From Candidatus Poribacteria bacterium (GTDB taxonomy: Bacteria; Poribacteria; WGA-4E; PCPOR2b), in NCBI GenBank assembly GCA_965208325.1, contig OZ242326.1, positions 2,272,001 through 2,336,000 of the forward strand: a stretch of 64,000 nucleotides of DNA, in the 5' to 3' direction. This document shows, one piece after another, positions 43,177-62,152 of the stretch; the stretch's first letter is position 1; every line of letters starts with the position of its first letter. The position numbers and the translations under genes are program-made. The notes beneath the pieces were generated by a model that was not told where the DNA came from, did no database searches, and worked only from the letters and a program-made list of their open reading frames with translations.

Positions 43177-43227
43177 AACCCTTCGGTTTTGTCAACCACG
43201 TTGAGTTAAATAGGAAAGATGTCTAAT

Positions 43228-43255
43228 AAAAAAAAAGGGGAGTTGATAACTCCCC
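43228..43255 (-). terminator. Rho-independent terminator of hicB-hicA
   Basis: On the minus strand GGGGAGTT-ATC-AACTCCCC followed by T9. Confidence 0.85.
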
Positions 43256-43262
43256 CGGTAGA

Positions 43263-43476: not shown

Positions 43477-43493
43477 TCATAAATCAATCCACT

Positions 43494-44264: not shown

Positions 44265-44307
44265 ACCCAACGCTTTTTTCGGTCCAGATACCCAAAAAGC
44301 GTTGGGT
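44265..44307. repeat. 14-bp perfect inverted repeat upstream of giant gene 1
   Basis: ACCCAACGCTTTTT (44265-78) and AAAAAGCGTTGGGT (44294-307). Confidence 0.8.
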
Positions 44308-44460
44308 ATTGCGCCATGTATAAATGTTGACGTGCATTGTTTGGTAATTGACACCACGAATGACATAAGAATTTGATTTTCTAATGCTTAGGAATCGGCA
44401 GCTGATAGGGTTTGGAATAAAGGGATAGTAGAGAGCACAACTAACATCGACAGGGATGAA

Positions 44461-47400
44461 ATGGACCTTCTAGCGAAACGTCAGATTGTAATTTTAGCTG
44501 CATTTATGTTTCTTTTAGTTCAGAGTTTGACTTATGGCGAAACAACGGTTTCAATGAGTCCGTCTACCGTGGAGTCCCCCGCCGTTGGGCAGCAGTTGAG
44601 TTTCAGTATCAACATTACGGGCGGAATAGATGTATCGTATTTTAGGGTAACCTTGACATTTGATCCAACGGCGCTCTCGTATGTCAGCATTTCATCCGGA
44701 GGTTACCTCGGCAATACGGTGTCTGACGATACCCAGACCACTTATGATTCAATAAGATACCGAGAATCAATCAGCACTGGGGTAGACGGGGACGGCACGT
44801 TTGCCACTGTTACCTTTACAGTCCTTGAGGCCAAAGACTCCACAATCGGACTGTCAGCCGGTCTTATTAACTCAACGAACAATTTAATAGATAAAACAGT
44901 CGAAGGTGCTACCATTACTAGTCCGCAAACGACTGGAATATCCATCAGTATAGTAAGCAGCCCGGGGTCTGGAAATCCCGGCGACGATTTGACGTATACG
45001 GTTGAGGTTCAGGAGGACGGAACCGCCGCCTCTGGTAAAACAGTCTCCTTTAGCATCACTTCCGGCGATGGGAATGCGTCTCTGAACCCCGCAAGCGCAA
45101 CAACCGACACCGATGGACAAGCTTCCACGACTATAACGCTTGGACAAAATGCGTCCGGATTCTATACAGTTACGGCAACCGTCGACTCCAAATCTATCAG
45201 CGGTGCTGCAAAAGTTATCCCTCTGCCCGCAGAAATTTCAATGAGTCCGTCTAGTGTGGAGTCCCCCGCCGTTGGACAGCAGTTGAGTTTCAGTATCAAT
45301 ATTAAGGGCGGAATAGATGTGTCGTATTTTAGGGTAACCTTGACATTTGATCCAACGGCGCTCTCGTATGTCAGCATTTCATCCGGAGGTTACCTCGGCA
45401 ATACGGTGTCTGACGATACCCAGACCACCAATGATTCAGTAAAATACCGAGAATCAATCAGCACTGGGGTAGACGGGGACGGCACGTTTGCCACTGTTAC
45501 CTTTACAGTCCTTGAGGCCAAAGACTCCACAATCGGACTGTCAGCCGGTCTTATTAACTCAACGAACAATTTAATAGATAAAACAGTCGAAGGTGCTACC
45601 ATTACTAGTCCGCAAACGACTGGAATATCCATCAGTATAGTAAGCAGCCCGGGGTCTGGAAATCCCGGTGACGATTTGACGTATACGGTTGAGGTTCAGG
45701 AGGACGGAACCGCCGCCTCTGGTAAAACAGTCTCCTTTAGCATCACTTCCGGCGATGGGAATGCGTCTCTGAACCCCGCAAGCGCAACAACCGACACCGA
45801 TGGACAAGCTTCCACGACTATAACGCTTGGACAAAATGCGTCCGGATTCTATACAGTTACGGCAACCGTCGACTCCAAATCTATCAGCGGTGCTGCAAAA
45901 GTTATCCCTCTGCCCGCAGAAATTTCAATGAGTCCGTCTAGTGTGGAGTCCCCCGCCGTTGGACAGCAGTTGAGTTTCAGTATCAATATTAAGGGCGGAA
46001 TAGATGTGTCGTATTTTAGGGTAACCTTGACATTTGATCCAACGGCGCTCTCGTATGTCAGCATTTCATCCGGAGGTTACCTCGGCAATACGGTGTCTGA
46101 CGATACCCAGACCACCAATGATTCAATAAGATACCGAGAATCAATCAGCACTGGGGTAAACGGGGACGGCACGTTTGCCACTGTTACCTTTACAGTCCTT
46201 GAGGCCAAAGACTCCACAATCGGACTGTCAGCCGGTCTTATTAACTCAACGAACAATTTTATAGATAAAACAGTCGAAGGCGCTGCGATTACTAGTCCGC
46301 AAACGACTGGATTATCCATCAGTATAGTAAGCAGCCCGGGGTCTGGAAATCCCGGTGACGATTTGACGTATACGGTTGAGGTTAAGGAGGACGGTAGCGC
46401 CGCTTCAGGAAAAACAGTCTCCTTTAGCATCACTTCCGGCGATGGGAATGCGTCTCTGAACCCCGCAAGCGCAACAACCGACACCGATGGACAAGCTTCC
46501 ACGACCATAACGCTTGGACAAAATGCTTCCGGCTCATATACAGTTACTGCAACCGTCGGCTCCAAATCTATCACAGGTACGGCAACGGTTAACCCGCCGC
46601 CTACGGGAGTTACCATCAGTGTAGTGACTGCACCAGGATCTGGCGACCCCGGCGACGAATTGACGTTTACAGTTGAGGTGCAGGAGGACGGAAGTGCCGC
46701 CTCTGGAAAAACAGTGTCATTCAGTATCACTTCAGGCGATGGAAATGCGTCTCTGAACCCTACAAGCTCAACAACCGACACCAATGGACAGGCTTCCACT
46801 ACGATAACACTCGGAAACAATGCGTCCGGAATCTATATGGTTACTGCAACCGTCGACTCCGAATCCGTTAACGGTGCCGCAACAGTTACCCATCCGCCTG
46901 CGCAAATTTCAATGAGTCCGTCAACCGTAGAGTCCCCCGCCGTTGGACAGCAGTTGACTTTCAGTATCAATATTAAGGGCGGGATAGATGTGATGAGTTA
47001 TAGCACAACCGTGAGATTTGACTCCACGGCGCTCTCGTATGTCAGCCTTACGTCGGGAAATTACCTCAGCAGTTCGCAGATTAACGCTACCTCCGTCACC
47101 AATGATGTATTAAGGCACTCTGGATCACTCTCACTGGGTGAGCCAAGGGTTGGAGTAGATGGCGATGGCACGATTGCCACAGTGACCTTTACAGTCCTTG
47201 AGGTCAAGGATTCTACGCTAAGCCTGTCAGCCCGCCTTAGAGACTCATCGTCACAGTTAATAGATGAAACAACCACAGGCGCTACCATTACCAGTCCGAC
47301 AGTATCACAGACAGGATTATCAATATCTGTAGTAACCAGCCCGGGGTCAGGTAACCCCGGCGACGAGTTGACGTTCTCTGTCGAGGTGCAGGAGGACGGG

Positions 47401-50400
47401 AGCGCCGCATCAGGAAAAACAGTGACCTTTAGTATCACTTCAGGCGATGCCAATGCGTCTCTGAACCCCGCCAGCGCAACCACCGACACCGACGGCCAGG
47501 CTTCCACGACAATAACACTTGGCAACAATGCCGCCGGAATCTATATAATTACTGCGACCGTCGACTCCGAATCTATCAATGGAGCTGCAAAGGTTATCCC
47601 CCCGCCCGCAGAACTTTCACTGAGTCCGTCTAGCGTGGAGTCCCCGGCTGTTGGACAGCAGTTGACTTTCAGTATCAATATTAAGGGCGGAATAGATGTG
47701 GTGAGTTATACCACAACCGTGAGATTTGATCCAACGGCGCTCTCGTATGTCAGCCTTACATCGAGCAATTACCTCAGCAGTTCGCAGATTAACTCTACCT
47801 CCACCACCAATGATTCAGTACGTCACTCCGGATTTCTCCCGCTGGGTGAGCCAAGGGTTGGAGTAGATGGCGACGGCACGATTGCCACAGTGACCTTTAC
47901 GGTCCTTGAGGTCAAGGACTCCACACTAAGTCTGACAGCCGGCCTTAGTGACACATCGGTGCATACAACAGAGGAAACAACCAAAGGCGCTACCATTACC
48001 AGTCCGACAGTATCACAGACAGGATTATCAATAAATGTAGTAACCAGTCCCGGCTCTGGCAACCCCGGCGACGAGTTGACGTTCACAGTGGAGGTGCAGG
48101 AGGACGGGAGCGCCGTATCAGGAAAGACAGTCTCCTTTAGTATCACATCCGGAGACGGCAATGCATCGCTGAATCCCGCAAGTACAACGACGGACTCCAA
48201 TGGGCAGGCTTCCACCACCATAACACTTGGAAACAATGCGTCCGGAATCTATATAGTTACGGCGACCGTCGACTCCGAATCCATTAACGGTGCCGCAAAA
48301 GCGACCCCTCCGCCTCCGCAAATTTCAATGAGTCCGTCAACCGTGGAGTCCCCCGCCGTTGGACAGCAGTTGACTTTCAGTATCAATATTAAGGGCGGGA
48401 TAGATGTAAAAAGATTCTCTACAACTGTGAGATTTGATCCAACTGCGCTCTCGTATGTCAGCCTTACATCGGGAAACTACATCGGCACCTCGCAGTCTAA
48501 AATTACCTCTACCACCAATAATTCAGTACGTCACTCCGAATTTTTCTTACTGGATGAGGGTGAGGCTGGTGTAGATGGGGACGGCACGCTTGCCACAGTG
48601 ACCTTTACGGTCCTTGAGGTCAAGGATTCCACGCTAAGCCTGTCAGCCAGGCTTAGAAACTCATCGTCACATGAAATTGATACAACGGTGGAAGGCGCTG
48701 CGATTACCAGTCCGACAGAAACAGGATTATTGATAAGTGTTGTAACCAGCCCGGGGTCAGGTAACCCCGGCGACGAATTGACCTTCACCGTTGAGGTGCA
48801 GGAGGACGGAAGTGCCGCGTCAGGAAAAACGGTGTCGTTTAGCATCACTTCAGGCGATGGAAATGCGTCCCTGAATCCTGCAAGCGCAACAACCGATACC
48901 GCCGGGCAGGCTTCCACTACGATAACACTCGGCGACAATGCTTCAGGCTCATATGCAGTTACGGCTACCGTTGACTCAAAATCTACCACCGGTACCGCAA
49001 CGGTTAACCCCCCGCCTCAAGGAATTACCATCAGTGTAGTAACTGCCCCTGGATCCGGCGACCCCGGTGACGAATTGACCTTCACTGTTGAGGTGCAGGA
49101 GGACGGAAGTGCCGCCTCTGGAAAAACAGTGTCATTCAGTATTACTTCCGGCGATGGAAATGCGTCGCTGAGCCCCGCTAGCGCAACAACCGACACCAAC
49201 GGTCAGGCTTCCACTACGATAACGCTTGGGGCAAACGCGACCGGCTCATATACAGTTACGGCTACCGCCGACGCAACATCTACCAGTGGTATTGCAACGG
49301 TTAACACCACGTCGCCGCAAATAATCCTCAGTGTAGTAACTGCCCCTGGTTCCGGCAACCCGGGTGACGCGTTGACGTTCACTGTTGAGGTGCAGGAGGA
49401 CGGAAACGCCGCATCAGGAAAAACAGTGGCGTTCAGTATTACTTCAGGCGATGGAAATGCGTCTCTGAGCCCTGCAAGCGCAACAACCGACACCAACGGA
49501 CAAGCTTCCACCACTATAACACTTGGAAATAATGCGTCCGGAATCTATATAGTTACTGCGACCGTCGACTCCGAATCTGTCAACGGCGCCGCAACAGCTA
49601 CCCCCCCGCCAGTAGAACTTTCACTGAGTCCGTCAACCGTAGAGTCCCCCGCCGTTGGACAGCAGTTGACTTTCAGTATCAATATTAAGGGCGGGATAGA
49701 TGTGCTGAGTTATAGGACAATCGTGAGATTTGACTCAACTGCGCTCTCGTATGTCAGCCTTACATCGGGAAATTACCTCGGCAGTTCGCAGATTAACACT
49801 ACCTCCACCACCAATGATTCAGTAACCCACTCTGGATCGCTCACACTGGCTGAGCCAAGGGTTGGAGTAGATGGCGACGGCACGATTGCCACAGTGACCT
49901 TTACAGTCCTTGAAGTCAAGGACTCCACGATACGCCTGTCAGCCAGCCTTAGTAATTCATCAAGTCGTTTAATAGATAAAACAACCACTGGCGCTGCCAT
50001 TACCAGTCCGATGGTATCCCAGACAGGATTATCGATAAGTGTAGTCAGCAGTCCCGGCTCTGGCAACCCCGGCGACGAGTTGACGTTTACCGTTGAGGTG
50101 CAGGAGGACGGAAACGCCGCCTCGGGAAAATCAGTCTCTTTCAATATCACCTCCGGCGATGGAAATGCGTCTCTGAGCCCTGCAAGCGCAACAACCGACA
50201 CCAACGGACAAGCTTCCACCACTATAACACTTGGAAATAATGCGTCCGGAATCTATATAGTTACTGCGACCGTCGACTCCGAATCTGTCAACGGCGCCGC
50301 AACAGCTACCCCCCCGCCAGTAGAACTTTCACTGAGTCCGTCAACCGTAGAGTCCCCCGCCGTTGGACAGCAGTTGACTTTCAGTATCAATATTAAGGGC

Positions 50401-53400
50401 GGGATAGATGTGCTGAGTTATACCACAATCGTGAGATTTGACTCAACTGCGCTCTCGTATGTCAGCCTTACATCGGGAAATTACCTCGGCAGTTCGCAGA
50501 TTAACACTACCTCCACCACCAATGATTCAGTAACCCACTCTGGATCGCTCACACTGGCTGAGCCAAGGGTTGGAGTAGATGGCGACGGCACGATTGCCAC
50601 AGTGACCTTTACAGTCCTTGAAGTCAAGGACTCCACGATACGCCTGTCAGCCAGCCTTAGTAATTCATCAAGTCGTTTAATAGATAAAACAACCACTGGC
50701 GCTGCCATTACCAGTCCGATGGTATCCCAGACAGGATTATCGATAAGTGTAGTCAGCAGTCCCGGCTCTGGCAACCCCGGCGACGAGTTGACGTTTACCG
50801 TTGAGGTGCAGGAGGACGGAAACGCCGCCTCGGGAAAATCAGTCTCTTTCAATATCACCTCCGGCGATGGAAATGCGTCTCTGAGCCCTGCAAGCGCAAC
50901 AACCGACACCAACGGACAAGCTTCCACCACTATAACACTTGGAAATAATGCGTCCGGAATCTATATAGTTACTGCGACCGTCGACTCCGAATCTGTCAAC
51001 GGCGCCGCAACAGCTACCCCCCCGCCAGTAGAACTTTCACTGAGTCCGTCAACCGTAGAGTCCCCCGCCGTTGGACAGCAGTTGACTTTCAGTATCAATA
51101 TTAAGGGCGGGATAGATGTGCTGAGTTATAGGACAATCGTGAGATTTGACTCAACTGCGCTCTCGTATGTCAGCCTTACATCGGGAAATTACCTCGGCAG
51201 TTCGCAGATTAACACTACCTCCACCACCAATGATTCAGTAACCCACTCTGGATCGCTCACACTGGCTGAGCCAAGGGTTGGAGTAGATGGCGACGGCACG
51301 ATTGCCACAGTGACCTTTACAGTCCTTGAAGTCAAGGACTCCACGATACGCCTGTCAGCCAGCCTTAGTAATTCATCAAGTCGTTTAATAGATAAAACAA
51401 CCACTGGCGCTGCCATTACCAGTCCGATGGTATCCCAGACAGGATTATCAATAAGTGTAGTAACCAGCCCGGGGTCAGGTAACCCCGGCGACGAGTTGAC
51501 GTTCACAGTTCGGGTGCAGGAGGACGGAAGCGCCGCTTCAGGAAAATCAGTGTCATTCAGTATCACTTCCGGCGATGGAAATGCGTCCCTGAATCCAAGC
51601 AGTGCAACAACTGGCACCAATGGACAGGCTTCCACTACATTAACGCTCGGAAACAATGCCGCCGGTTCCTACACAGTTACTGCGGAGGTCGGCACGGAGT
51701 CTGTCAGTGCAGCCGCAACGGTTCAATCGGCAATGACCGATCAGAAGAAGGACAATCAACAACAACCGCAGGCAGGATTAACGATTAGTGTAGTAAGCAG
51801 TCCCGGGGCTGGCAATCCCGGTGACACATTGACGTTTGCTGTCGAGGTGCAGGCGGACGGGAGCGCCGCTTCAGGAAAAACAGTGTCGTTTAGTATCACC
51901 TCCGGCGATAGTAATGCGTCTTTGAATCCCGAAAGCGCTGCGACAGATAGCAAAGGGCGGGCTTCAACAACAATAACACTCGGAGAAAATGCTGCTGGCT
52001 CATACAGAGTTACTGCGGCGGTCGGTACGGAGACTGTCAGCTCGACAGTAACCGTTGAAACGTCAACAACTACCTCGCCGACGCCCAAAACTCTGGCGGA
52101 GGTTTCCGGCAATAATCAGAGCGCCTTGACCGGTAAAGCGTTGGCTAATCCCTTCGTCGTTAAAATTCTAGATCAGCATGACAACCTGATGGAAGGAGTC
52201 ACTGTAACTTTTTCTGTCACCGCAGGCGGCGGTTCGTTGAGCCGTACAAGCTTAGACACGGATGCCGACGGATTAGCAAAAAGCACCCTGGCGCTTGGCA
52301 GCGAGCCGGGTACAAACACGGTTACGGCAAGTGTCGAAGGAATCGCCGAAACCGTAACCTTTTCCGCTGTCGCTGAACTACTCGAATTTGACCTCTCAGT
52401 GCCTTCCGGTACTAGCTTGATTCACGTGCCGCTAAAAACCAGGACGGTTGACGGGACAACTGCCGCCATCAATTCAATTGCTGATCTGTACGAAGCGCTT
52501 GGCGGCGCAGATACGGTTAAGCTCCTTATTACATATAACCGAAATACGCAACAGTGGAATAGCTACCTCGGTGCGGGAAGTAAAGGAGGTACGGCGGATA
52601 GAGCCTTGGCGGCGGACCTAGGAATCGTCGCCAGCTTGAAATCATCCGTAACGGTTCGTATCGGAGGCGACCAACTCGGTTCGGGCGGAACGAGCACGAT
52701 AGGCTTAATCCAAGGCAAGAATCTAATCGGATTGCCGTTGAGAGATTCAATGATATCTCGTGTTAGCGACTTGCTTACGCTTGACGGCATTGCCGACAAC
52801 GCGGATGCCATTACTGTTTCGGTTGGCGGAAAGTTCAATACGGTCGAGCAAACCGGCGATGCAGGAGACATCTCAATTACGGGCGGACAAGCCTTTATCC
52901 TCGACGTTTCAAATGATGCGTCGGTTTCTATCTCCGGTGCAGGGTGGGATAACACTCCCGCCAACACTATGGCTGCACCGTTTTTGGCGGCGGAGGACAT
53001 TAACGTAACTGAAACCACGCCTGTGTTAGCGATGACCGGTGCGATTGTTCACCGTGTCGAAAATATTAACGGCAAAACTCTAACTGTTGTCGTCAAAAAC
53101 CTCTCAACAGGCCGCACAGTTACCGCGCTAATTGGAGATACCGGTGGCGTTTCATCGCGGGCTGATTACCAGCTCACTGTCGTTGATATAAAGCACGGAC
53201 GAGCAGCGGCTATAGGTGATATCCTTAAAATGTCCGCCGTTTCTGCCGATAACTCTATCAGCGCGCCGCCGCTGCGATACACTGTTACGGCTGAAGATAT
53301 CAAGTTGAACCGGATTCAGTTGCCCGAACTAATAGTCCAAGCCATACCTAAGGAAACGCAACTGTTGCCGAACTACCCGAACCCGTTCAACCCGGAGACC

Positions 53401-53643
53401 TGGATTCCCTACCGGTTATCGAAAGCTGCCGAAGTGACGTTGGAGATTTACGACGCCGCGGGCAACTTGGTGCGGACCATTGATGTCGGCTTCAAACCAG
53501 CCGCTGCGTACGATTCGCGTGCCTCGGCGATATACTGGGATGGCCGCAACAACTATGGTGAACCCATCGCCAGCGGCGTATATTTCTATCACTTGTTTAC
53601 GGACGCCTTTTCTGCCGCGCGCAAGATGCTCATTTTAAAGTAG
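44461..53643 (+). CDS. Giant secreted scaffoldin/invasin-like protein: 9 cohesin-like + ~14 Big_1-like Ig modules + C-terminal FlgD-Ig/T9SS-CTD-like domain
   Basis: Signal peptide. Cohesin-like units SPAVGQQL.F.I.I.GG.DV...FD..AL.Y...G.YL...GDGT.ATVTF.V. Ig units GKTVSFSITSGDG...ATTD.NGQASTT.TLG...G.Y.VTATV. Tail LLPNYPNPFNPETWIPY...WDGRN...SGVYFY...RKMLILK. Confidence 0.85.
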   Translation: MDLLAKRQIVILAAFMFLLVQSLTYGETTVSMSPSTVESPAVGQQLSFSINITGGIDVSYFRVTLTFDPTALSYVSISSGGYLGNTVSDDTQTTYDSIRYRESISTGVDGDGTFATVTFTVLEAKDSTIGLSAGLINSTNNLIDKTVEGATITSPQTTGISISIVSSPGSGNPGDDLTYTVEVQEDGTAASGKTVSFSITSGDGNASLNPASATTDTDGQASTTITLGQNASGFYTVTATVDSKSISGAAKVIPLPAEISMSPSSVESPAVGQQLSFSINIKGGIDVSYFRVTLTFDPTALSYVSISSGGYLGNTVSDDTQTTNDSVKYRESISTGVDGDGTFATVTFTVLEAKDSTIGLSAGLINSTNNLIDKTVEGATITSPQTTGISISIVSSPGSGNPGDDLTYTVEVQEDGTAASGKTVSFSITSGDGNASLNPASATTDTDGQASTTITLGQNASGFYTVTATVDSKSISGAAKVIPLPAEISMSPSSVESPAVGQQLSFSINIKGGIDVSYFRVTLTFDPTALSYVSISSGGYLGNTVSDDTQTTNDSIRYRESISTGVNGDGTFATVTFTVLEAKDSTIGLSAGLINSTNNFIDKTVEGAAITSPQTTGLSISIVSSPGSGNPGDDLTYTVEVKEDGSAASGKTVSFSITSGDGNASLNPASATTDTDGQASTTITLGQNASGSYTVTATVGSKSITGTATVNPPPTGVTISVVTAPGSGDPGDELTFTVEVQEDGSAASGKTVSFSITSGDGNASLNPTSSTTDTNGQASTTITLGNNASGIYMVTATVDSESVNGAATVTHPPAQISMSPSTVESPAVGQQLTFSINIKGGIDVMSYSTTVRFDSTALSYVSLTSGNYLSSSQINATSVTNDVLRHSGSLSLGEPRVGVDGDGTIATVTFTVLEVKDSTLSLSARLRDSSSQLIDETTTGATITSPTVSQTGLSISVVTSPGSGNPGDELTFSVEVQEDGSAASGKTVTFSITSGDANASLNPASATTDTDGQASTTITLGNNAAGIYIITATVDSESINGAAKVIPPPAELSLSPSSVESPAVGQQLTFSINIKGGIDVVSYTTTVRFDPTALSYVSLTSSNYLSSSQINSTSTTNDSVRHSGFLPLGEPRVGVDGDGTIATVTFTVLEVKDSTLSLTAGLSDTSVHTTEETTKGATITSPTVSQTGLSINVVTSPGSGNPGDELTFTVEVQEDGSAVSGKTVSFSITSGDGNASLNPASTTTDSNGQASTTITLGNNASGIYIVTATVDSESINGAAKATPPPPQISMSPSTVESPAVGQQLTFSINIKGGIDVKRFSTTVRFDPTALSYVSLTSGNYIGTSQSKITSTTNNSVRHSEFFLLDEGEAGVDGDGTLATVTFTVLEVKDSTLSLSARLRNSSSHEIDTTVEGAAITSPTETGLLISVVTSPGSGNPGDELTFTVEVQEDGSAASGKTVSFSITSGDGNASLNPASATTDTAGQASTTITLGDNASGSYAVTATVDSKSTTGTATVNPPPQGITISVVTAPGSGDPGDELTFTVEVQEDGSAASGKTVSFSITSGDGNASLSPASATTDTNGQASTTITLGANATGSYTVTATADATSTSGIATVNTTSPQIILSVVTAPGSGNPGDALTFTVEVQEDGNAASGKTVAFSITSGDGNASLSPASATTDTNGQASTTITLGNNASGIYIVTATVDSESVNGAATATPPPVELSLSPSTVESPAVGQQLTFSINIKGGIDVLSYRTIVRFDSTALSYVSLTSGNYLGSSQINTTSTTNDSVTHSGSLTLAEPRVGVDGDGTIATVTFTVLEVKDSTIRLSASLSNSSSRLIDKTTTGAAITSPMVSQTGLSISVVSSPGSGNPGDELTFTVEVQEDGNAASGKSVSFNITSGDGNASLSPASATTDTNGQASTTITLGNNASGIYIVTATVDSESVNGAATATPPPVELSLSPSTVESPAVGQQLTFSINIKGGIDVLSYTTIVRFDSTALSYVSLTSGNYLGSSQINTTSTTNDSVTHSGSLTLAEPRVGVDGDGTIATVTFTVLEVKDSTIRLSASLSNSSSRLIDKTTTGAAITSPMVSQTGLSISVVSSPGSGNPGDELTFTVEVQEDGNAASGKSVSFNITSGDGNASLSPASATTDTNGQASTTITLGNNASGIYIVTATVDSESVNGAATATPPPVELSLSPSTVESPAVGQQLTFSINIKGGIDVLSYRTIVRFDSTALSYVSLTSGNYLGSSQINTTSTTNDSVTHSGSLTLAEPRVGVDGDGTIATVTFTVLEVKDSTIRLSASLSNSSSRLIDKTTTGAAITSPMVSQTGLSISVVTSPGSGNPGDELTFTVRVQEDGSAASGKSVSFSITSGDGNASLNPSSATTGTNGQASTTLTLGNNAAGSYTVTAEVGTESVSAAATVQSAMTDQKKDNQQQPQAGLTISVVSSPGAGNPGDTLTFAVEVQADGSAASGKTVSFSITSGDSNASLNPESAATDSKGRASTTITLGENAAGSYRVTAAVGTETVSSTVTVETSTTTSPTPKTLAEVSGNNQSALTGKALANPFVVKILDQHDNLMEGVTVTFSVTAGGGSLSRTSLDTDADGLAKSTLALGSEPGTNTVTASVEGIAETVTFSAVAELLEFDLSVPSGTSLIHVPLKTRTVDGTTAAINSIADLYEALGGADTVKLLITYNRNTQQWNSYLGAGSKGGTADRALAADLGIVASLKSSVTVRIGGDQLGSGGTSTIGLIQGKNLIGLPLRDSMISRVSDLLTLDGIADNADAITVSVGGKFNTVEQTGDAGDISITGGQAFILDVSNDASVSISGAGWDNTPANTMAAPFLAAEDINVTETTPVLAMTGAIVHRVENINGKTLTVVVKNLSTGRTVTALIGDTGGVSSRADYQLTVVDIKHGRAAAIGDILKMSAVSADNSISAPPLRYTVTAEDIKLNRIQLPELIVQAIPKETQLLPNYPNPFNPETWIPYRLSKAAEVTLEIYDAAGNLVRTIDVGFKPAAAYDSRASAIYWDGRNNYGEPIASGVYFYHLFTDAFSAARKMLILK
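44551..46530 (+). repeat. ~3 near-identical 687-bp tandem units (cohesin-like + Ig)
   Basis: Matching DNA at 44551/45238/45925; antisense ORFs recur at 687-bp offsets. Confidence 0.9.
49448..51450 (+). repeat. ~3 near-identical 708-bp tandem units (cohesin-like + Ig)
   Basis: Matching DNA at 49448/50156/50864; antisense ORFs at 49773/50481/51189. Confidence 0.9.
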
Positions 53644-54200
53644 TATCAGATGACCATATGACGGCTGCAATGCTGATGAATAGCGAGTTTCCGTCATCAC
53701 TCGTGAGTCGGTTGGATAGTAATTGTAGGTTGGGTTAAGTGGGAAACACCGAATAGCTAGCCTTCCTGTCAATGCCTAAAGCCTTTGCAGGTAGCGCGAA
53801 CAGATCAATCAAACGAATAGGGAGGGCGATAGTTTTCTAGGCGCTTCGATAGCATGTGCAGTTCTTCATCATATAAATCTTAGTCCCTATTCTTCACCGA
53901 AACCAAAATCAAGAACTTTCGCGCCTTTTGTTCGGACACCTAAAAAATGTTGGGTATTGCGTCATGAATATAGATGGATATTTCACGCAGTTGGGCAAAA
54001 GATTCCGCGGCACATATCGGTACAAAATACAACAAAACAACCTCAATCTTTAGCTTTATGCATTAACCGTCAAATGTGCAGGAAAGTCAAGACATTGTAT
54101 GCGATTTTAAGCGCTCGATTAATAATGCTTCAGCTCGATATTCAACAGTAGATTTGGCTTGGAATAAAGAGATAGTCGAGAGCGCAATCAAAAGATTCAT

Positions 54201-57200
54201 GTGCATGAAAGGAAATATCTATTGAAACGTCAGATTGGCATTTTAGCTGCACTTATCTTACTTGTAAATTACAGTGTGATTTATGGCGCAACAACGGTTT
54301 CAATGAGTCCGTCTACCGTAGCGTCCCCCGCCGTTGGCCAGCAGTTGAGTTTTAGTATCAACATTACGGGCGGATTGGATGTGGGGAATTTTAGACTAGT
54401 CGTGACATTTGATTCAAATGCGCTCTCATATACCAGCACCACCTCTGGAAGTTACCTCGGCAGTTCGGCGGCTAGCTCAACCAGAGCCACCAGTAATTCA
54501 GTAACACATAGTGAAGGACTAATCAGCACGGGGGTAGATGGCGACGGTACGCTTGCCACAGTTACCTTTTCCGTCCTTGAGGTCAAGGGCTCCACTATCG
54601 GTCTGTCAGCCACCCTTTATAACCCACAATGGGAATCAATAAGTACAACAGCAGAAGGCGCAACGATTACAAGTGCGGGATTATCCATAAGTAACGTAAG
54701 TGAGCCCGGGGCTGGCGACCCCGGTGACGAGTTGACGTATACGGTTGAGGTTCAAGAGGACGGAAGCGCAGCGTCAGGAAAAACAGTGTCGTTTAGTATC
54801 ACCGCCGGAGACGGAAATGCATCTCTGAGTCCCGCAAGCGCAACAACTGACACCGATGGGCAGGCTTCCACCACAATAACACTTGGTGCCAGTGCGTCCG
54901 GCTCATATACAGTTACAGCAACCGTCGACTCCAAATCCACCACCGGTACGGCAACAGTCAATCCACCGCCTCCGAAAATTTCAATGAGCCCGTCTACCGT
55001 GGCGTCTCCAGCCGTTGGCCAGCAGTTGAACTTTAGTATTAGCATTAACGGCGGAATGGATGTGGCGGGTTATTTAGTAAAAGTGACATTTGATTCAAAT
55101 GCGCTCTCGTATGCAAGCATTTCATCTGGAGGTTACCTCGGTAGTTCGGCGACTAGCTCAACCACAACCACGAGTGATTCAGTAACATTCATCGAAGCAA
55201 TTGGCGCCACGACCGGGGTAAATGGGAACGGTACGCTTGCCACCGTAACCTTTACAGTCCTTGAGGTCAAGGCCTCCACTATCGGGCTGTCAGCTACTCT
55301 CAGCAACCCGCGTATCGAAACAATAACTTCAACAGCCGAAGGCGCTGTGGTTACCAATCCAGGATTATCAATAAGTAACGTAACCGGTCCTGGGTCTGGA
55401 GATCCCGGCGATGAGTTGACGTATACGGTTGAGGTTCAGCAGGACGGGAGCGCCGCTTCAGGAAAAACGGTGTCGTTCAGCATCACTTCCGGCGACGGAA
55501 ATGCGTCTCTGAGCCCCGAAAGCGCAACAACCGATACCGACGGTCAGGCTTCCACTACGATAACACTTGGAGAAAATGCGTCAGGCTCATATACAGTTAC
55601 GGCAACCGTTGACTCAAAATCTACCACCGGTACGGCAACGGTTAACCCCCCGCCTCCGGAAATTACCATCAGTGTAGTTACTGCCCCTGGCTCCGGCGAC
55701 CCCGGCGACGAGCTGACCTTCACCGTTGAGGTGCAGGAGGACGGGAGCGCCGCTTCAGGAAAAACAGTGTCGTTTAGCATTACTTCCGGTGATGGAAATG
55801 CCACTCTGAACCCCGAAAGCGCAACAACCGACACCGATGGACAAGCTTCCACTACGATAACACTTGGGAACAATGCGTCAGGCTCATATACAGTTACGGC
55901 AACCGTCGACTCAAAATCTACAACCGGTACGGCGACCGTTAACTCCACATCCCCGGGAATTTCGATTAGCGTTGTAACTGCCCCTGGATCCGGTAACCCC
56001 GGCGACGAATTGACGTTCACTGTTGAGGTGCAGGAGGACGGAAGTGCCGCGTCGGGAAAAACAGTGTCGTTTAGCATCACTTCCGGCGACAGCAATGCGT
56101 CTCTGAACCCCGAAAGCGCAACGACCGATACCAACGGTCAGGCTTCCACCACGATAACGCTTGGGGCAAACGCATCCGGCTCATATACAGTTACGGCAAC
56201 CGTTGACTCCAAATCCACCACCGGTACCGCAACCGTTAACCCCCCGCCTCCGGAAATTACCATCAGTGTAGTAACTGCCCCTGGATCCGGCGACCCCGGC
56301 GACGAGCTGACCTTCACCGTTGAGGTGCAGGAGGACGGAAGCGCCGCATCAGGCAAAACTGTCTCGTTTAGTATCACATCGGGAGACGGCAATGCCTCTC
56401 TGAGCCCTGAAAGCGCAACAACCGATACCAACGGTCAGGCTTCCACCACGATAACGCTTGGAGAAAATGCGTCAGGCTCATATACAGTTACGGCAACCGC
56501 CGACTCCAAATCCACCACCGGTACCGCAACCGTTAACCCCCCGCCTCCGGAAATTACCATCAGTGTAGTTACTGCCCCTGGCTCCGGCGACCCCGGCGAC
56601 GAGCTGACCTTCACCGTTGAGGTGCAGGAGGACGGAAGCGCCGCGTCAGGAAAAACGGTGTCGTTCAGCATCACTTCCGGCGATGGAAATGCGTCTCTGA
56701 GCCCTGAAAGTGCAACAACCGATACCAACGGTCAGGCTTCCACTACGATAACGCTTGGAGAAAATGCGTCAGGCTCATATACAGTTACGGCAGCCGCCGA
56801 CTCCAAATCCACCAGCGGTACCGCAACCGTTAACCCCCCGCCGCCGGAAATTACCATCAGTGTAGTAACTGCCCCTGGATCCGGCGACCCCGGTGACGAA
56901 TTGACGTTCACTGTTGAGGTGCAGGAGGATGGAAGCGCCGCGTCAGGAAAAACGGTGTCGTTCAGCATCACTTCCGGCGATGGAAATGCGTCTCTGAGCC
57001 CTGAAAGCGCAACAACCGATACCAACGGTCAGGCTTCCACCACGATAACGCTTGGGGCAAACGCATCCGGCTCATATACAGTTACGGCATCCGTCGACTC
57101 CAAATCCACCAGCGGTACCGCAACCGTTAACTCCACATCTCCGGCAACTACGATCACGGTAATAACTGCTCCTGGATCCGGCGACCCCGGCGACGAGTTG

Positions 57201-60200
57201 ACGTTTACTGTCGAGGTGCAGGAGGACGGAAGTGCTGCCTCCGGAAAAACTGTGTCGTTTAGCATTACCTCCGGCGATGGAAATGCGTCTCTGAACCCTA
57301 CAGACGCAACAACCGACACCAATGGGCAGGCTTCCACCACTATAACACTTGGCAACAATGCGTCCGGAATCTACATAATTACTGCAACCGTCGACTCCGA
57401 ATCCATTAACGGTGCCGCAACAGTTACCCATCCGCCTGCGCAAATTTCAATGAGCCCGTCTAGTGTGGAGTCCCCCGCTGTCGGGCAGCAGTTGCGTTTT
57501 AGTATCAACATTACAGGCGGACTGGATGTGAAGAGTTTCGGATTACACGTGAGATTTGATTCATCTGCACTCTCGTATGTCAGCATGGCATCCGGAGGTT
57601 ACCTCGGTAGTGATTCGAATGTCTTTTCCTTTTCCGCCAATGATCAGGTAACATACAGCGAAAGAACCAGCAATGGTGGGGTAGACGGGGACGGCACGCT
57701 TGCCACGGTAACCTTTACAGTCCTTGAGATTAAGGACTCCACAATAAGGCTGTCAGCCAGTCTAACCAATTCGTCGTCAAATTCAATTGATAATACAGTC
57801 GAAGGCGCTGCCATTACCCGCCCGGCAGTATCACAGACGGGATTATCCATAAGTGTAGTAAGCAGCCCGGGGTCTGGAAATCCCGGCGACGAGTTGACGT
57901 TTACTATTGAGGTCCAAGAGGACGAAAGCGCCGCAACCGGAAAAACGGTGACCTTTAGTATCACTTCAGGCGATGGAAATGCATCTCTGAACCCCGCAAG
58001 CGCAACCACGGACAGCAACGGACAGGCTTCCACGACAATAACGCTTGGAAACAATGCGTCCGGCATCTATATAGTTACTGCAACCGTTGACTCAGAATCT
58101 ATCAACGGGGCCGCAACAGTCATCCCCCCGCCTGCAGAAATTTCAATGAGTCCGTCTAGCGTGGAATCCCCAGCCGTTGGACAGCAGGTGACTTTTGATA
58201 TCAATATTAAGGGCGGTCTGGATGTGAAGGACTATGGAGTCACCGTGGGGTTCGATGCAACGGCACTCTCGTATGACAGCATTGCCTCTGGAGGTTATCT
58301 CGGAAATACGGCGCGCGACAGTACCAGCACCACCAATAATTCCGTATCGTACGGCGAATCTATCACCACTGGCGGGGTGGATGGGGACGGCACGCTTGCC
58401 ACCGTAACTTTTACCGTCCTTGACGTCAAGGACTCCACGCTAGCGCTGTCAGCCAGCCTTAGTAATTCATTGAGACAAATAATATATACAACAGTCGAAG
58501 GCGCCGCGATTACGATTCCGCCGCCGCCAGTATCACCCGCAGGATTATCCATAAGTGTAGTCAGCAGTCCCGGTTCTGGTAATCCCGGCGATGAGTTGAC
58601 GTTTACTATCGAGGTCCAAGAGGACGGAAGCGCCGCTTCAGGAAAAACGGTGTCGTTCAGCATCACTTCCGGCGATGGAAATGCGTCTCTGAACCCTGCA
58701 AGCGCAACGACGGACATCAACGGACAGGCTTCCACGGCTATAACGCTTGGAAACAATGCGTCCGGCATCTTTATAGTTACTGCAACCGTGGACTCAGAAT
58801 CCATCAACGGCGCCGCACTAGTTATCCCCCCGCCTGCGCAAATTTCCATGAGTCCGTCAACCGTAGAGTCACCCGCCGTTGGACAGCAGTTGACTTTTGA
58901 TATCAACATTAAGGGCGGAATTGATGTCGCGAGATTTGGGTTTACCGTGAGATTTGATTCAACTGCACTCTCGTATGTCAGCATCACGTCTGGAAATTAC
59001 CTCGGCAGTGGGGCGCGCGATAGCACCAGCACCATAAACAATTCCGTATTGTACAGCGAACAAATTACCACTGGTGCAGGAGGGGATGGGGATGGCACAC
59101 TTGCCACAGTGACCTTTACCGTCCTAGAGGTCAAGGACTCCACACTAACGCTCGAAGCCAACCTAAGCAACTCATCGTCACATGCAATAGATAAAACCGT
59201 AGAAGGCGCCGCGATTACGATTCCGCCGGAGCCAGTAACACCGTCAGGATTATCAATAAGTGTAGTAACCAGTCCGGGGTCAGGTAACCCCGGTGACGAG
59301 CTGACGTTCACTGTTCAGGTGCAGGAGGACGGAAGCGCCGCATCAGGAAAATCAGTGTCATTCAGTATCACTTCCGGCGATGGAAATGCATCTCTGAACC
59401 CCGCCAGCGCAACCACCGATACCAATGGACAAGCTTCCACTACATTAACGCTCGGAAACAATGCCGCCGGTTCCTACACAGTTACTGCGGCGGTCGGCAC
59501 GGAGTCTGTCAGTGCAGCCGCAACGGTTCAAACGACAATGACCGATCAGAAGAAGGACAATCAACAACAACCGCAGACAGGATTAACGATTAGTGTAGTA
59601 AGCAGTCCCGGAACTGGCAATCCCGGTGACACATTGACGTTTGCTGTCGAGGTTCAGGCGGACGGGAGCGCCGCTTCAGGAAAAACAGTGTCGTTTAGTA
59701 TCACCTCCAGCGATGGTAATGCGTCTTTGAATCCCGAAAGCGCTGCGACGGATACCAAAGGGCGGGCTTCAACAACAATAACACTTGGGGAAAATGCTGC
59801 TGGCTCATACAGAGTTACTGCGGCGGTCGGTACGGAGACTGTCAGCTCGACAGTAACCGTTGAAACGTCAACAACTACCTCGCCGACGCCCAAAACTCTG
59901 GCGGAGGTTTCCGGCAATAATCAGAGCGCCTTGACCGGTAAAGCGTTGGCTAATCCCTTCGTCGTTAAAATTCTAGATCAGCATGACAACCTGTTGGAAG
60001 GAGTCACTGTAACTTTTTCTGTCACCGCAGGCGGCGGTTCGTTGAGCCGTACAAGCTTAGACACGGATGCCGACGGATTAGCAAAAAGCACCCTGGCGCT
60101 TGGCAGCGAGCCGGGTACAAACACGGTTACGGCAAGTGTCGAAGGAATCGCCGAAACCGTAACCTTTAACGCTGTCGCTGAACTGCTCGAATTTGACCTC

Positions 60201-61448
60201 TCAGTGCCTTCCGGTACTAGCTTGATTCACGTGCCGCTAAAAACCAGGACGGTTGACGGGACAACTGCCGCCATCAATTCAATCGCTGACCTGTACGACG
60301 CGCTTGGCGGCGCAGATACGGTTAAGCTCCTTATTACATATAACCGAAATACGCAACAGTGGAATAGCTACCTCGGTGCGGGAAGTAAAGGAGGTACGGC
60401 GGATAGAGCCTTGGCGGCGGACCTTGGAATCGTCGCCAGCTTGAAGTCATCCGTAACCATTCGTATCGGAGGCGACCAACTCGGTTCGGGCGGAACGAGC
60501 ACGATAGGCTTAATCCAAGGCAAGAATCTAATCGGATTGCCGCTGAGGGATTCAAGGATTTCTCGTGTTAGCGACTTGCTTACGCTTGACGGCATTGCCG
60601 ACAACGCGGATGCCGTTACTGTTTCGGTTAACGGATCATTCACGCCGGTTGCGCAAGCCGGCGATGCAGGAGATACTGCAATCACGGGCGGACAAGCCTT
60701 TATCCTCGACGTTTCAAATAATGCGTCGGTTTCTATCTCCGGCAAGGGGTGGGGTAACACTCCCGCCAACACTATGGCTGCGCCGCTGTTGGCGGCGGAG
60801 GACATTAACGTAACTGGAACCACGCCTGTGTTAGCGATGACCGGTGCGATTGTCCACCGTGTGAAAACTACCAATGGAAGAATATTGCGTGTTATCGTCA
60901 AAAACCTCTCAACCGGCATTACCGTAAACAAGGTTATTGAAGTGGCAGGCGGTACTGCATCGTACGTCGCTTATCAACTTACTGTTGTTGATATAAAGCA
61001 CGGACGAGCAGCGGCGATAGGTGATATCCTTGAAATATCCGCCGTTTCTACCGATAACTCTATCAGCGCGCCGCCGCTGCGATACACTGTTACGGCTGAA
61101 GATGTCAAGACCAACCGGATTCAGTCGCCCGAACTAATAGTCCAAGCCATACCTAAGGAAACGCAACTGTTGCCGAACTACCCGAATCCGTTCAACCCGG
61201 AGACCTGGATTCCCTACCGGTTAGCCAACGCTGCCGAGGTGACGTTGGAAATCTACGACGCCGCGGGCAACTTGGTGCGGACCATTGATGTCGGCTTCAA
61301 ACCCGCCGCTGCGTACGATTCGCGTGCCTCGGCGATATACTGGGATGGCCGCAACAACTATGGTGAACCCATCGCCAGCGGCGTGTATTTCTATCACCTG
61401 TTTACGGACGCCTTTTCTGCCGCGCGCAAGATGCTCATCTTGAAATAG
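54201..61448 (+). CDS. Second giant scaffoldin/invasin-like paralogue: 5 cohesin-like + ~13 Big_1-like Ig modules + same C-terminal domain (start may be TTG 54222)
   Basis: Same module motifs as 44461..53643. The last ~730 aa are nearly identical to gene 1. Confidence 0.85.
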   Translation: MHERKYLLKRQIGILAALILLVNYSVIYGATTVSMSPSTVASPAVGQQLSFSINITGGLDVGNFRLVVTFDSNALSYTSTTSGSYLGSSAASSTRATSNSVTHSEGLISTGVDGDGTLATVTFSVLEVKGSTIGLSATLYNPQWESISTTAEGATITSAGLSISNVSEPGAGDPGDELTYTVEVQEDGSAASGKTVSFSITAGDGNASLSPASATTDTDGQASTTITLGASASGSYTVTATVDSKSTTGTATVNPPPPKISMSPSTVASPAVGQQLNFSISINGGMDVAGYLVKVTFDSNALSYASISSGGYLGSSATSSTTTTSDSVTFIEAIGATTGVNGNGTLATVTFTVLEVKASTIGLSATLSNPRIETITSTAEGAVVTNPGLSISNVTGPGSGDPGDELTYTVEVQQDGSAASGKTVSFSITSGDGNASLSPESATTDTDGQASTTITLGENASGSYTVTATVDSKSTTGTATVNPPPPEITISVVTAPGSGDPGDELTFTVEVQEDGSAASGKTVSFSITSGDGNATLNPESATTDTDGQASTTITLGNNASGSYTVTATVDSKSTTGTATVNSTSPGISISVVTAPGSGNPGDELTFTVEVQEDGSAASGKTVSFSITSGDSNASLNPESATTDTNGQASTTITLGANASGSYTVTATVDSKSTTGTATVNPPPPEITISVVTAPGSGDPGDELTFTVEVQEDGSAASGKTVSFSITSGDGNASLSPESATTDTNGQASTTITLGENASGSYTVTATADSKSTTGTATVNPPPPEITISVVTAPGSGDPGDELTFTVEVQEDGSAASGKTVSFSITSGDGNASLSPESATTDTNGQASTTITLGENASGSYTVTAAADSKSTSGTATVNPPPPEITISVVTAPGSGDPGDELTFTVEVQEDGSAASGKTVSFSITSGDGNASLSPESATTDTNGQASTTITLGANASGSYTVTASVDSKSTSGTATVNSTSPATTITVITAPGSGDPGDELTFTVEVQEDGSAASGKTVSFSITSGDGNASLNPTDATTDTNGQASTTITLGNNASGIYIITATVDSESINGAATVTHPPAQISMSPSSVESPAVGQQLRFSINITGGLDVKSFGLHVRFDSSALSYVSMASGGYLGSDSNVFSFSANDQVTYSERTSNGGVDGDGTLATVTFTVLEIKDSTIRLSASLTNSSSNSIDNTVEGAAITRPAVSQTGLSISVVSSPGSGNPGDELTFTIEVQEDESAATGKTVTFSITSGDGNASLNPASATTDSNGQASTTITLGNNASGIYIVTATVDSESINGAATVIPPPAEISMSPSSVESPAVGQQVTFDINIKGGLDVKDYGVTVGFDATALSYDSIASGGYLGNTARDSTSTTNNSVSYGESITTGGVDGDGTLATVTFTVLDVKDSTLALSASLSNSLRQIIYTTVEGAAITIPPPPVSPAGLSISVVSSPGSGNPGDELTFTIEVQEDGSAASGKTVSFSITSGDGNASLNPASATTDINGQASTAITLGNNASGIFIVTATVDSESINGAALVIPPPAQISMSPSTVESPAVGQQLTFDINIKGGIDVARFGFTVRFDSTALSYVSITSGNYLGSGARDSTSTINNSVLYSEQITTGAGGDGDGTLATVTFTVLEVKDSTLTLEANLSNSSSHAIDKTVEGAAITIPPEPVTPSGLSISVVTSPGSGNPGDELTFTVQVQEDGSAASGKSVSFSITSGDGNASLNPASATTDTNGQASTTLTLGNNAAGSYTVTAAVGTESVSAAATVQTTMTDQKKDNQQQPQTGLTISVVSSPGTGNPGDTLTFAVEVQADGSAASGKTVSFSITSSDGNASLNPESAATDTKGRASTTITLGENAAGSYRVTAAVGTETVSSTVTVETSTTTSPTPKTLAEVSGNNQSALTGKALANPFVVKILDQHDNLLEGVTVTFSVTAGGGSLSRTSLDTDADGLAKSTLALGSEPGTNTVTASVEGIAETVTFNAVAELLEFDLSVPSGTSLIHVPLKTRTVDGTTAAINSIADLYDALGGADTVKLLITYNRNTQQWNSYLGAGSKGGTADRALAADLGIVASLKSSVTIRIGGDQLGSGGTSTIGLIQGKNLIGLPLRDSRISRVSDLLTLDGIADNADAVTVSVNGSFTPVAQAGDAGDTAITGGQAFILDVSNNASVSISGKGWGNTPANTMAAPLLAAEDINVTGTTPVLAMTGAIVHRVKTTNGRILRVIVKNLSTGITVNKVIEVAGGTASYVAYQLTVVDIKHGRAAAIGDILEISAVSTDNSISAPPLRYTVTAEDVKTNRIQSPELIVQAIPKETQLLPNYPNPFNPETWIPYRLANAAEVTLEIYDAAGNLVRTIDVGFKPAAAYDSRASAIYWDGRNNYGEPIASGVYFYHLFTDAFSAARKMLILK
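55400..57420 (+). repeat. Seven 297-bp tandem Ig (Big_1-like) units forming a cohesin-free stalk
   Basis: 99-aa period; antisense ORFs at 56138/56435/56732/57029. Confidence 0.9.
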
Positions 61449-62152
61449 TATCAGTTCCCCATTTGAGTGAATGGGATAGACTCCTCTAGCCTTCTCCGAA
61501 ACCCAACGCGTTTTAAAACTCTGGACAACCCCACGGCAAATCAAGCCACCTCAAACACCAAAACTGCTCGTGAAAGAGCGTTTTGCCAGCCCGCCACTTT
61601 AATGGACTGCCCAGGTTTTGGGGATGATTTCCCTCAATCATACAAATCACAGTTCAGACAGTTCCTGCAGGTTGAGATTAACCGAGCGAATGAGCTGCAA
61701 ATGAGCTAATAACGAAGGATCAACCAAATGAATAGTGAGGACGCCTTCATTAGTTTAAAAATGCTTCTCCCACAGTGAGAACGCCTCGTCGGTTCATCCA
61801 ATCTTCATTCCCCTCCTTACCAAGGACGGGTTAGGGGAGGTCAAAAGTTTGGGGTAGGTTCAATCAAACCCCACTTGAATTCTTGTAGGTTGGGATCAAA
61901 TGAGCGAATAGCGAATGCGATAGTTTACCTTAGGGTTAAGCGATCAACCGACCGAATAGCGAGCGATCAAAGGAGCGAACAGCGACCGCGATAGTTTTTT
62001 AGCTCTTGCTAGGGGTCTTTGGTCGAATGAACCCCAAAATAAATCCACATTTTTATCGTAAAGATTCGCGCTCGGGGTCCTAGAATTTCTCGCTACCGGG
62101 CCTTGCTAGCGATAAAGACCAAATACAACCGCTGCGCTCATTAACAAATAGC

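Follow-up and report, generated by a model that had tools for sequence, protein, structure and literature searches.

The DNA analysed here (the window) is a 64,000-nucleotide stretch, bases 2,272,001–2,336,000, of the single 4.71-Mb contig OZ242326.1 of a Candidatus Poribacteria bacterium (assembly GCA_965208325.1; 95.6% completeness). It carries two adjacent genes for giant proteins, gene 1 (44461..53643, ATG start, 3060 amino acids) and gene 2 (54201..61448, GTG start, 2415 amino acids), which lie on the plus strand, as do all features described for them below, and match exactly the coordinates and lengths given in an original prediction made from the sequence alone. That prediction had described arrays of cohesin-like (C) and Big_1/invasin-like immunoglobulin (B) modules with a C-terminal domain (CTD) of the FlgD-Ig/type IX secretion system (T9SS) kind. 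In gene 1, Pfam Cohesin scores 178.7 bits (9 stretches) and Big_1 scores 269.7 bits (14 stretches); for gene 2 the values were 93.8 bits over 5 and 265.1 bits over 13. Carving by two conserved motifs and a whole-genome re-scan with hidden Markov models (HMMs) made from the carved modules agree on the order C-B-C-B-C-B-B-C-B-C-B-C-B-B-B-C-B-C-B-C-B-B-B-T-CTD for gene 1 and C-B-C-B7-C-B-C-B-C-B-B-B-T-CTD for gene 2. The C/B order is module for module the one predicted; T, a region of ~340 residues between array and CTD, was absent from the earlier description. Pfam and NCBIfam scans found no catalytic family in either protein, as had been claimed, and the Pfam scan found no carbohydrate-binding module (CBM) family at E≤0.01. 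Neither giant has an anchor in the form of an SLH domain, sortase motif or type II dockerin, the C-terminus being of the Por_Secre_tail/FlgD_ig type. Non-catalytic, multi-cohesin and with a T9SS-type tail, both proteins are of the scaffoldin-like kind that had been proposed.

Gene 1 begins with a putative Sec signal peptide (residues 1–26, 44461..44538; basic n-region, hydrophobic core, ...TYG/ETT), recognized by eye, and in gene 2, too, basic residues and then a hydrophobic core precede the first cohesin. The block C1-B-C2-B-C3 (44542..46305) holds cohesins of one type, 93–96% identical with Big_1 modules between them: C1 (44542-44931), which alone scores 38.8 bits against Pfam Cohesin, C2 (45229-45618) and C3 (45916-46305). 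C4 (46900-47310), C5 (47608-48018) and C6 (48316-48720, the module used for structure prediction) are mutually 71–82% identical (47 bits), and C7 (49612-50022), C8 (50320-50730) and C9 (51028-51438) share 99–100% protein identity in a region where a 708-bp C-B unit is repeated at ~95% DNA identity. The array closes with B-B and a divergent Big_1/Invasin_D3 domain (51439..52359, the last domain at 52114-52359), followed by T (residues 2634–2975, 52360..53385; beta-sandwiches according to its model) and the CTD (53374..53640). Gene 2, behind its own putative signal peptide, has C1 (54291-54674) and C2 (54972-55358), mutually 69% identical (36.6 bits), seven consecutive Big_1 modules (55359..57437), and C3 (57438-57836), C4 (58134-58538) and C5 (58836-59243), mutually 64–76% identical; its T (60165..61190) shares 87% identity with the T of gene 1, and its CTD lies at 61179..61445. 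The Big_1 identity claimed for the B modules holds for the whole proteins and for modules taken singly, with 36.8 bits for one B and 43.6 bits for the terminal one of gene 1 against the PF02369 gathering score of 34.9; the last B module also exceeds the Invasin_D3 cut-off.

In pairwise comparison the 14 C modules are 53–100% identical (median 65%) and the 25 regular B modules 63–100% (median 79%). The 3' 4.9 kb of the two genes are collinear at 86% DNA identity, and gene 2 is, by this likeness, a tandem duplicate or paralogue of gene 1. The frames, of 9.2 and 7.2 kb, stay open far beyond chance. We reject the possibility that the arrays are an assembly artefact: identity among the internal repeats is 95–97% in DNA, not 100%, the frames are intact, the locus recurs in independent metagenomes, and there is a 91%-identical relative, P0004. 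Words of gene 1 matched 19 public runs from 12 studies, mostly labelled sponge metagenome; no RNA data set was among the 21 runs considered. The locus is covered, at no less than 95% identity, by contigs from four runs. Of 30 locus bins, run X1 covers 29 in error-free pieces, and run X8, which belongs to a different study, covers all 30; bins left uncovered in runs X5 and X6 carry no weight. The identity of P0004 extends over the last 1646 residues, with C4-, C5- and C6-type cohesins at the position of C7–C9 in gene 1, and since its module order differs, array structure may vary among strains. A contig of run X6 joins position 47302 (in C4) to 51439 (the end of C9), so that 4136 bases are missing and 2 letters stand at the junction, a joint that stays in frame and removes 1378 residues from gene 1. 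The joint and the order in P0004 suggest either repeat-array polymorphism among strains or short-read collapse.

Are the C modules genuine cohesins? By sequence and predicted fold they are, as the original prediction had claimed. Modules taken singly reach 47, 38.8 and 36.6 bits with Pfam Cohesin (PF00963), whose cut-off is 24.1. A profile (A1) made from 13 C modules, all but one, and the genome's two other cohesins has 31 invariant columns across these 15 sequences; against the sequences of the Protein Data Bank (PDB) it gave 13 matches at E≤1, 12 of them cohesin or scaffoldin chains (best 3l8q, E 2e-6). An AlphaFold model of gene 1 C6, from a 35-row alignment, has nine beta strands, two of them split (pLDDT 94.8, pTM 0.88), and the best 50 matches listed by Foldseek against the PDB are all cohesins, with TM scores of 0.73–0.81. 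The best is CaCohA2 (6kgf, E 2.4e-9, TM 0.79), the second the non-cellulosomal cohesin of Archaeoglobus fulgidus (2xdh, E 3.1e-9, TM 0.78), and ScaC (4uyp) and CipA (1aoh) are among the others; the modelled fold is thus the cohesin jelly roll and not a generic Ig or CBM fold. A complex prediction with one cohesin (A1), one dockerin (A3) and two calcium ions, run without controls, scored 0.02 against a mark of 0.32, a value that speaks neither for nor against binding.

The genome also encodes dockerins. Pfam Dockerin_1 (PF00404) gave 11 matches in 10 open reading frames (ORFs), one of which exceeds the cut-off only when summed with its in-frame neighbours, and an HMM made from these dockerins found the same 10 ORFs, and no more, among 15,099 six-frame ORFs of at least 80 residues; the count of dockerin proteins suggested as a check on the scaffoldin idea is therefore ten by either route. 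All ten dockerins have two DxNxDGxxDxxD repeats, and in each repeat the D/N/D/D positions vary little or not at all. Each of the ten proteins consists of a passenger, the dockerin, a linker of ~35 residues (helical in appearance, by eye) and a CTD of the giants' family. The passengers are WD40 propellers in two proteins, FGE-sulfatase/GldK/EgtB-like domains in two, and in one each TIG repeats, Big_1 with leucine-rich repeats (LRR), YWTD (Ldl_recept_b)/CARDB, fn3/Big_7, a YVTN-type propeller and a 2533-residue cadherin protein. The module-HMM scan of this genome found no ORF that holds a cohesin and a dockerin together, so the genome keeps socket proteins apart from plug proteins, and outside the giants cohesins occur only in two stand-alone proteins of 349 residues.

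One of these stand-alone cohesins offers a candidate cognate pair. Its gene lies directly downstream of the YVTN-propeller–dockerin–CTD gene (region G000:C1:3481704-3484845, loci L030 and L036; the propeller–dockerin gene proper at C1:3481704-3483521), and the two products may be partners. Orthologues of the propeller–dockerin protein, 76–84% identical to it, keep the adjacency in two of the three same-genus genomes (G003 and G007); in the third, G038, the orthologue lies ~31 kb from the stand-alone cohesin gene, at the far end of a cluster of single-cohesin CTD genes. The C-terminal ~190 residues of the cohesin beside the propeller–dockerin gene match no family. The G038 cluster (G038:C1:573371-606733), placed between the stand-alone cohesin gene and the propeller–dockerin orthologue, comprises five tandem passenger–cohesin–CTD genes (ORFs of 962–1077 residues), and a comparable cluster of three genes lies at 3805100-3810707 of G003.

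What the passengers are bears on function. The original prediction had proposed a cellulosome-like surface complex, plausibly for host-matrix degradation or adhesion. A multi-enzyme complex degrading the sponge host's matrix or other polymers would suit the scaffoldin-like architecture, and a like proposal exists for Candidatus Stygibacter, whose dockerin proteins are, according to Williams et al. (2021; PMC8542988), enzymes of the GH18, GH57, S8 and C25 families. In the present genome, however, family scans matched none of the 10 dockerin proteins to a catalytic family of glycoside hydrolases, polysaccharide lyases, esterases or sulfatases, the passengers being propellers, cadherin, LRR, TIG, fn3 and FGE-sulfatase-like domains, and the scaffolds carry no CBM. 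What remains in its favour are metalloprotease-like matches in two of the ten, one weak and below threshold (NF038122 at the N-terminus of the cadherin giant, 52 bits against a cut-off of 80) and one borderline (Metallopep in the Big_1/LRR protein, 27.2 bits against 27). We regard a degradative complex as quite unlikely; the degradation half of the earlier proposal is left unsupported, and it is the adhesion half that passengers made of binding and repeat domains favour.

How might the giants reach the cell surface? Their tails agree with the FlgD-Ig/T9SS-CTD-like ends that had been predicted: Por_Secre_tail (PF18962; cut-off 27) scores 58.8 bits in gene 1 and 67.7 in gene 2, and FlgD_ig 34.6 bits in both (cut-off 27). 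TIGR04183 (cut-off 23) is exceeded by gene 1 at 34.2 bits and narrowly missed by gene 2 at 21.0. The same CTD occurs in 61 ORFs of the genome, in 52 of them ending within 10 residues of the ORF end. Candidate T9SS components include two PorU-like ORFs (282 and 257 bits; curated cut-off 420), several PorV-like barrels (up to 104 bits; cut-off 250) and a SprA-like ORF of 2196 residues with collinear pieces of 65, 57, 27 and 20 bits (cut-off 200) over model positions 133–1502; GldM (TIGR03517) had no match here and none in control genomes either. A divergent T9SS-like export route is plausible on these matches. The PorU-like (C25 peptidase) ORFs, at G000:C1:4022118-4027856 and 3715233-3721457 (L038, L039), are 2114 and 2130 residues long, about twice the PorU model of 1095 positions, and each has a CTD of its own. 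T matches no Pfam family and, in whole or in part, is common to 21 ORFs of the genome and to many ORFs of the three same-genus genomes. Its model (pLDDT 82.7) is nearly all beta; the best Atlas score was 0.87, to an entry with no family, Foldseek matched adhesin and pilin multi-domain chains at TM ~0.2, and VIA-align gave a best Z of 8.3 over residues 221–332 only, in the range of chance beta-sandwich matches. As modelled, T is a common pre-CTD stalk of stacked beta-sandwiches and not an enzyme.

In conjunction, these data lead us to favour, with a probability of roughly 55%, a non-cellulolytic cohesin–dockerin surface scaffold, the docking itself being presumed from the modules present. We infer the following model of export route, surface retention, cohesin–dockerin binding and specificity, and biological target. 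A Sec signal peptide would export each giant, and the T9SS-type CTD would carry it over the outer membrane by way of a divergent SprA/PorV/PorU-like system. On the cell surface each giant would form a rod of about 25 beta-sandwich domains, and the two rods would display 9 + 5 cohesins, spaced one to seven Big_1 domains apart. These cohesins, which group by sequence into about eight types distinguished chiefly by the presumed dockerin-binding 8-3-6-5 sheet, would catch the two-F-hand dockerins that stand just ahead of the CTD in ten other secreted proteins. The captured proteins would be the WD40, YVTN and YWTD propellers, the cadherin giant and the LRR/Big_1, TIG, fn3 and FGE-sulfatase-like proteins, and the result would be a surface 'adhesome' of binding modules contacting host, particles or neighbouring cells, as opposed to a polysaccharide-degrading cellulosome.

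The pattern of variation among the cohesins bears on whether such docking could be specific. Solved cohesins are nine-stranded jelly rolls with sheets 8-3-6-5 and 9-1-2-7, and in solved complexes the dockerin interface lies mainly on the 8-3-6-5 sheet (PMC8063739). We compared 10 non-redundant C modules, leaving aside the near-duplicates C2, C3, C8 and C9 of gene 1; strands were numbered in model order and assigned to sheets by the canonical topology, not by model coordinates. Mean column entropy is 1.30 bits on strands 3, 5, 6 and 8 (30 columns) and 0.46 bits on strands 1, 2, 4, 7 and 9 (51 columns), with a Mann-Whitney p of 6e-6, to be read in the knowledge that neither columns nor modules are independent. 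Over 45 pairs, the median nonsynonymous divergence (dN) is 0.57 on the first set against 0.13 on the second, and the median synonymous divergence (dS) 0.55 against 0.57. The ratio dN/dS (omega) is therefore ~1 on the 8-3-6-5 strands, exceeding 1 in 21 of the 45 pairs, and ~0.23 on the other set. The low dN against dS on strands 1, 2, 4, 7 and 9 points to purifying selection on the conserved sheet, and since dS is equal for the two strand sets, unequal ages or gene conversion are excluded as the cause of the contrast. Strand 8 combines invariant residues (109, 111 and 113) with residues that carry 2.0–2.2 bits (108, 112 and 114). The pattern fits a binding surface that has diversified into about eight cohesin types. 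We advance tentatively, as a possibility that goes beyond the scaffold itself, that the 14 cohesins together make up a docking rail of ~8 specificities, each recruiting a defined one of the ten eukaryote-like binding proteins with dockerins (WD40, cadherin, YWTD, LRR) into an ordered, programmable surface 'adhesome' through which the cell is recognized by, or attaches to, the sponge host. It is similarly conceivable, and to be held no more firmly, that these specificities arose by rapid change of the binding face after tandem duplication.

The module pair extends far beyond this genome. A cohesin-profile scan of species-representative genomes, own genome excluded, returned 78 loci, of which 75 bear Candidatus or uncultured Poribacteria in their titles; 76 are non-archaeal, and in these the cohesins are 35–47% identical to ours, except at 7 loci with 31–34%. 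Among 121 sampled Poribacteria genomes, the cohesin profile has 1–27 matches in each of 120, and dockerins have from 3 to at least 49 in every one; genomes with few cohesin-profile matches still have 2–5 Pfam cohesins. The pair of modules is on these counts a phylum-wide trait. Most of the 89 cohesin ORFs in the 78 loci have a single cohesin (80 ORFs; two in 7, three in 2), and with X for the passenger and DOC for the dockerin their usual forms are X-C-T-CTD, X-C-CTD, X-C-DOC-CTD and C-C(-C)-DOC-CTD, the ORFs of type C-DOC-CTD, C-C-DOC-CTD and C-C-C-DOC-CTD uniting cohesin and dockerin on one polypeptide. Arrays as long as 9 or 5 cohesins were found neither in the three same-genus genomes nor in the 78 related loci, and the same-genus genomes have just single-cohesin CTD proteins and two stand-alone cohesins. 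In a library of 1.84 billion proteins, the cohesin profile matched 4542 representatives at E≤1e-3, among them P0066 (9 Pfam cohesin stretches, 12 by own profile, with SprB repeats and CHU_C), P0083 (8 cohesins and a C-terminal dockerin) and P0005 (WD40 and 5 cohesins). The closest same-genus relatives of the giants are cohesin-free proteins, B11-T-CTD, B15-T-CTD and B4-T-CTD, in which a stalk and CTD like those of the giants follow Big_1 modules alone; next to them, the cohesins look like insertions in an adhesin chassis. From this comparison of sequences, the scaffolds with 9 and 5 cohesins appear to be recent and specific to the lineage, having arisen by insertion of cohesins into an adhesin framework of Big_1 modules and their later amplification.

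These relatives also count against the cohesin–dockerin scaffold, and they do so together with several other observations. The three same-genus genomes have 12–18 dockerin matches and no multi-cohesin giant, so dockerins do not depend on these scaffolds. With 16 cohesins to 10 dockerins, the present genome is the opposite of cellulosomal systems and of other Poribacteria. The dockerin proteins each have their own CTD, so they would not need a scaffold to reach or stay at the surface, and the matches to T9SS components all fall under the curated cut-offs. An omega near 1 fits relaxed constraint on an unused face equally well, and function could reside in the strongly conserved sheet. Part of this evidence would be explained if the giants were repetitive adhesins or surface-layer stalks, the cohesin folds being spacers or binding something other than a dockerin, for instance a host glycan, a matrix protein or a particle. 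The pure Big_1 relatives, the persistence of dockerins in genomes that lack giants, the weak resemblance of T to adhesin and pilin beta-sandwiches and a possibly unused canonical face all accord with such stalks. Against them stand the joining of cohesin and dockerin in single polypeptides across Poribacteria, the adjacency of cohesin and dockerin genes within the genus, the core cohesin signature strictly kept in 14 of 14 copies, and the alternation of invariant and variable residues on strand 8, which argues for a maintained surface, not decay. We consider this explanation rather unlikely.

The CTDs of the dockerin proteins raise a further alternative. As each has its own, these proteins may themselves be surface-anchored, and the cohesins could bind, in trans, dockerins fixed on a neighbouring or on the same cell, the giants then cross-linking microcolonies or a surface lattice in place of carrying soluble cargo. 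The many proteins of other Poribacteria that pair a cohesin with a dockerin would suit lattice formation. No protein of this genome combines the two modules, however, and the CTD may serve in this phylum for anchoring or for release of cargo; we think cross-linking improbable.

How does such a scaffold compare with known systems? CipA of Clostridium thermocellum, the primary cellulosome scaffoldin, has nine type I cohesins. Like CipA and other cellulosomal scaffoldins, the giants are non-catalytic polypeptides with many tandem cohesins of jelly-roll fold (by the C6 model), and their would-be partners have dockerins of two calcium-binding repeats and are encoded elsewhere in the genome. Unlike those scaffoldins, which belong to Firmicutes, they come from a Poribacteria bacterium that is presumably diderm; Big_1 domains replace the flexible linkers; there is no CBM; a T9SS-type CTD takes the place of an anchor of the type II dockerin or SLH kind; the partners are binding and repeat proteins in place of plant-cell-wall enzymes; and the cohesins differ at their binding faces, which in cellulosomal scaffoldins are near-uniform. 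The giants are thus built like scaffoldins but lack three features that define the cellulosomal ones: partners that are enzymes, a CBM, and anchoring through SLH or a type II dockerin. Non-cellulosomal cohesins, such as those of A. fulgidus (2xdh) and Clostridium perfringens (2jh2, 2w1n), share the cohesin fold outside a cellulosome, but as single modules of small or enzyme-bearing proteins, not as arrays on a giant stalk. Adhesins of the invasin/intimin type share the Big_1 modules and the rod-like tandem Ig arrays; the giants differ in having neither a beta-barrel anchor nor a C-type-lectin tip, in their probable export by a CTD and in the cohesins interleaved with the Ig domains. The passenger–cohesin–(dockerin)–CTD cassettes of other Poribacteria share with the giants the cohesin subfamily, the CTD and in part the stalk, and their dockerins are of the type found here. 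They have 1–3 cohesins, often with a dockerin, as against 9 + 5 cohesins and no dockerin, a composition by which the giants would act as pure scaffolds.

The closest parallel outside the phylum is a protein of 3,755 residues from Candidatus Stygibacter (Cloacimonadota), which Williams et al. (2021; PMC8542988) propose as a cohesin scaffoldin with a CTD. It is, like our pair, a giant, non-catalytic protein of an uncultured candidate phylum outside the Firmicutes, with tandem cohesins, a surface CTD and dockerin proteins in the genome, and it too is a case known from in-silico inference. Its cohesins alternate with CBM2 and CBM3, and the dockerin proteins of its genome are enzymes (PMC8542988). 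The cohesins of the giants are spaced by Big_1 domains, the ~340-residue stalk lies ahead of their CTD, and none of the dockerin proteins in our genome is clearly an enzyme. In view of this proposal, and of multi-cohesin T9SS proteins such as P0066 in the protein library, the novelty that the original prediction implied by placing the pair outside the Firmicutes was overstated. We found no literature tying Poribacteria to cohesins, dockerins or T9SS cargo, and none joining Latescibacteria, cohesin and dockerin, in a search that did not cover most subscription journals.

Turning to the surroundings, the genes next to the giants encode TPR giants and Laminin_G_3, VWA, FG-GAP/ASPIC, HtpG, L13/S9, PurA, nuclease and TauE proteins; they are housekeeping or other surface-type genes and provide no operon context. 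Some 60–80 nucleotides are conserved ahead of both starts (44380..44460 upstream of gene 1, resembling 54120-54200 upstream of gene 2) and are possibly a common promoter or 5' leader. Promoter and terminator scans 5' of both genes gave counts not above those of shuffled sequence. The 1.66 kb before gene 1 (42801-44460), of lower G+C content (0.45), holds no ORF of 120 residues or more, a 26-nucleotide direct repeat (43041, 43093) and a 19-nucleotide inverted repeat (44260-44312). Short matches among 42801-44460, 53723-53838 and 61636-61965 let contigs 'jump' between these three intergenic regions. The only Rfam matches in the window are two tRNAs. On the minus strand, an archaeal-type phosphopantothenate/pantothenate synthetase (PF02006, 222.5 bits) adjoins a GHMP-family kinase at 21377-22941, a pair that recalls the archaeal coenzyme A route (pantoate kinase and phosphopantothenate synthetase), here in a bacterium. 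Also on this strand are a 2026-residue TPR-repeat protein with a C-terminal AhpC/TSA-redoxin domain, its start overlapped by ~100 bases by the gene of an 896-residue TPR protein directly upstream on the same strand (both within 6872-15534), and a 648-residue DUF6785/DUF6784 protein (23270-25216, 487.5 bits). Three Laminin_G_3 (concanavalin-like) proteins, one of them fused to CarboxypepD_reg, are encoded on the minus strand at 5358-6818, 26415-27170 and 27307-28074 and are possible further surface or host-interaction genes.

What would such a scaffold mean for the organism? Poribacteria are widespread uncultured sponge symbionts with many eukaryote-like repeat proteins. If the cohesin–dockerin reading is true, repeat proteins of this kind would not be loose but plugged into giant scaffolds, which would give a concrete, testable model of the symbiont's surface. 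The cohesins might also serve as a source of orthogonal cohesin–dockerin pairs for protein engineering, and they offer a natural example of the way in which tandem duplicates might diverge in docking specificity, with a neutral-to-positive binding sheet, a strongly conserved other sheet and equal dS. If the docking rail, too, is true, a cohesin–dockerin code would be at work throughout the phylum Poribacteria that serves symbiosis and not the degradation of biomass.

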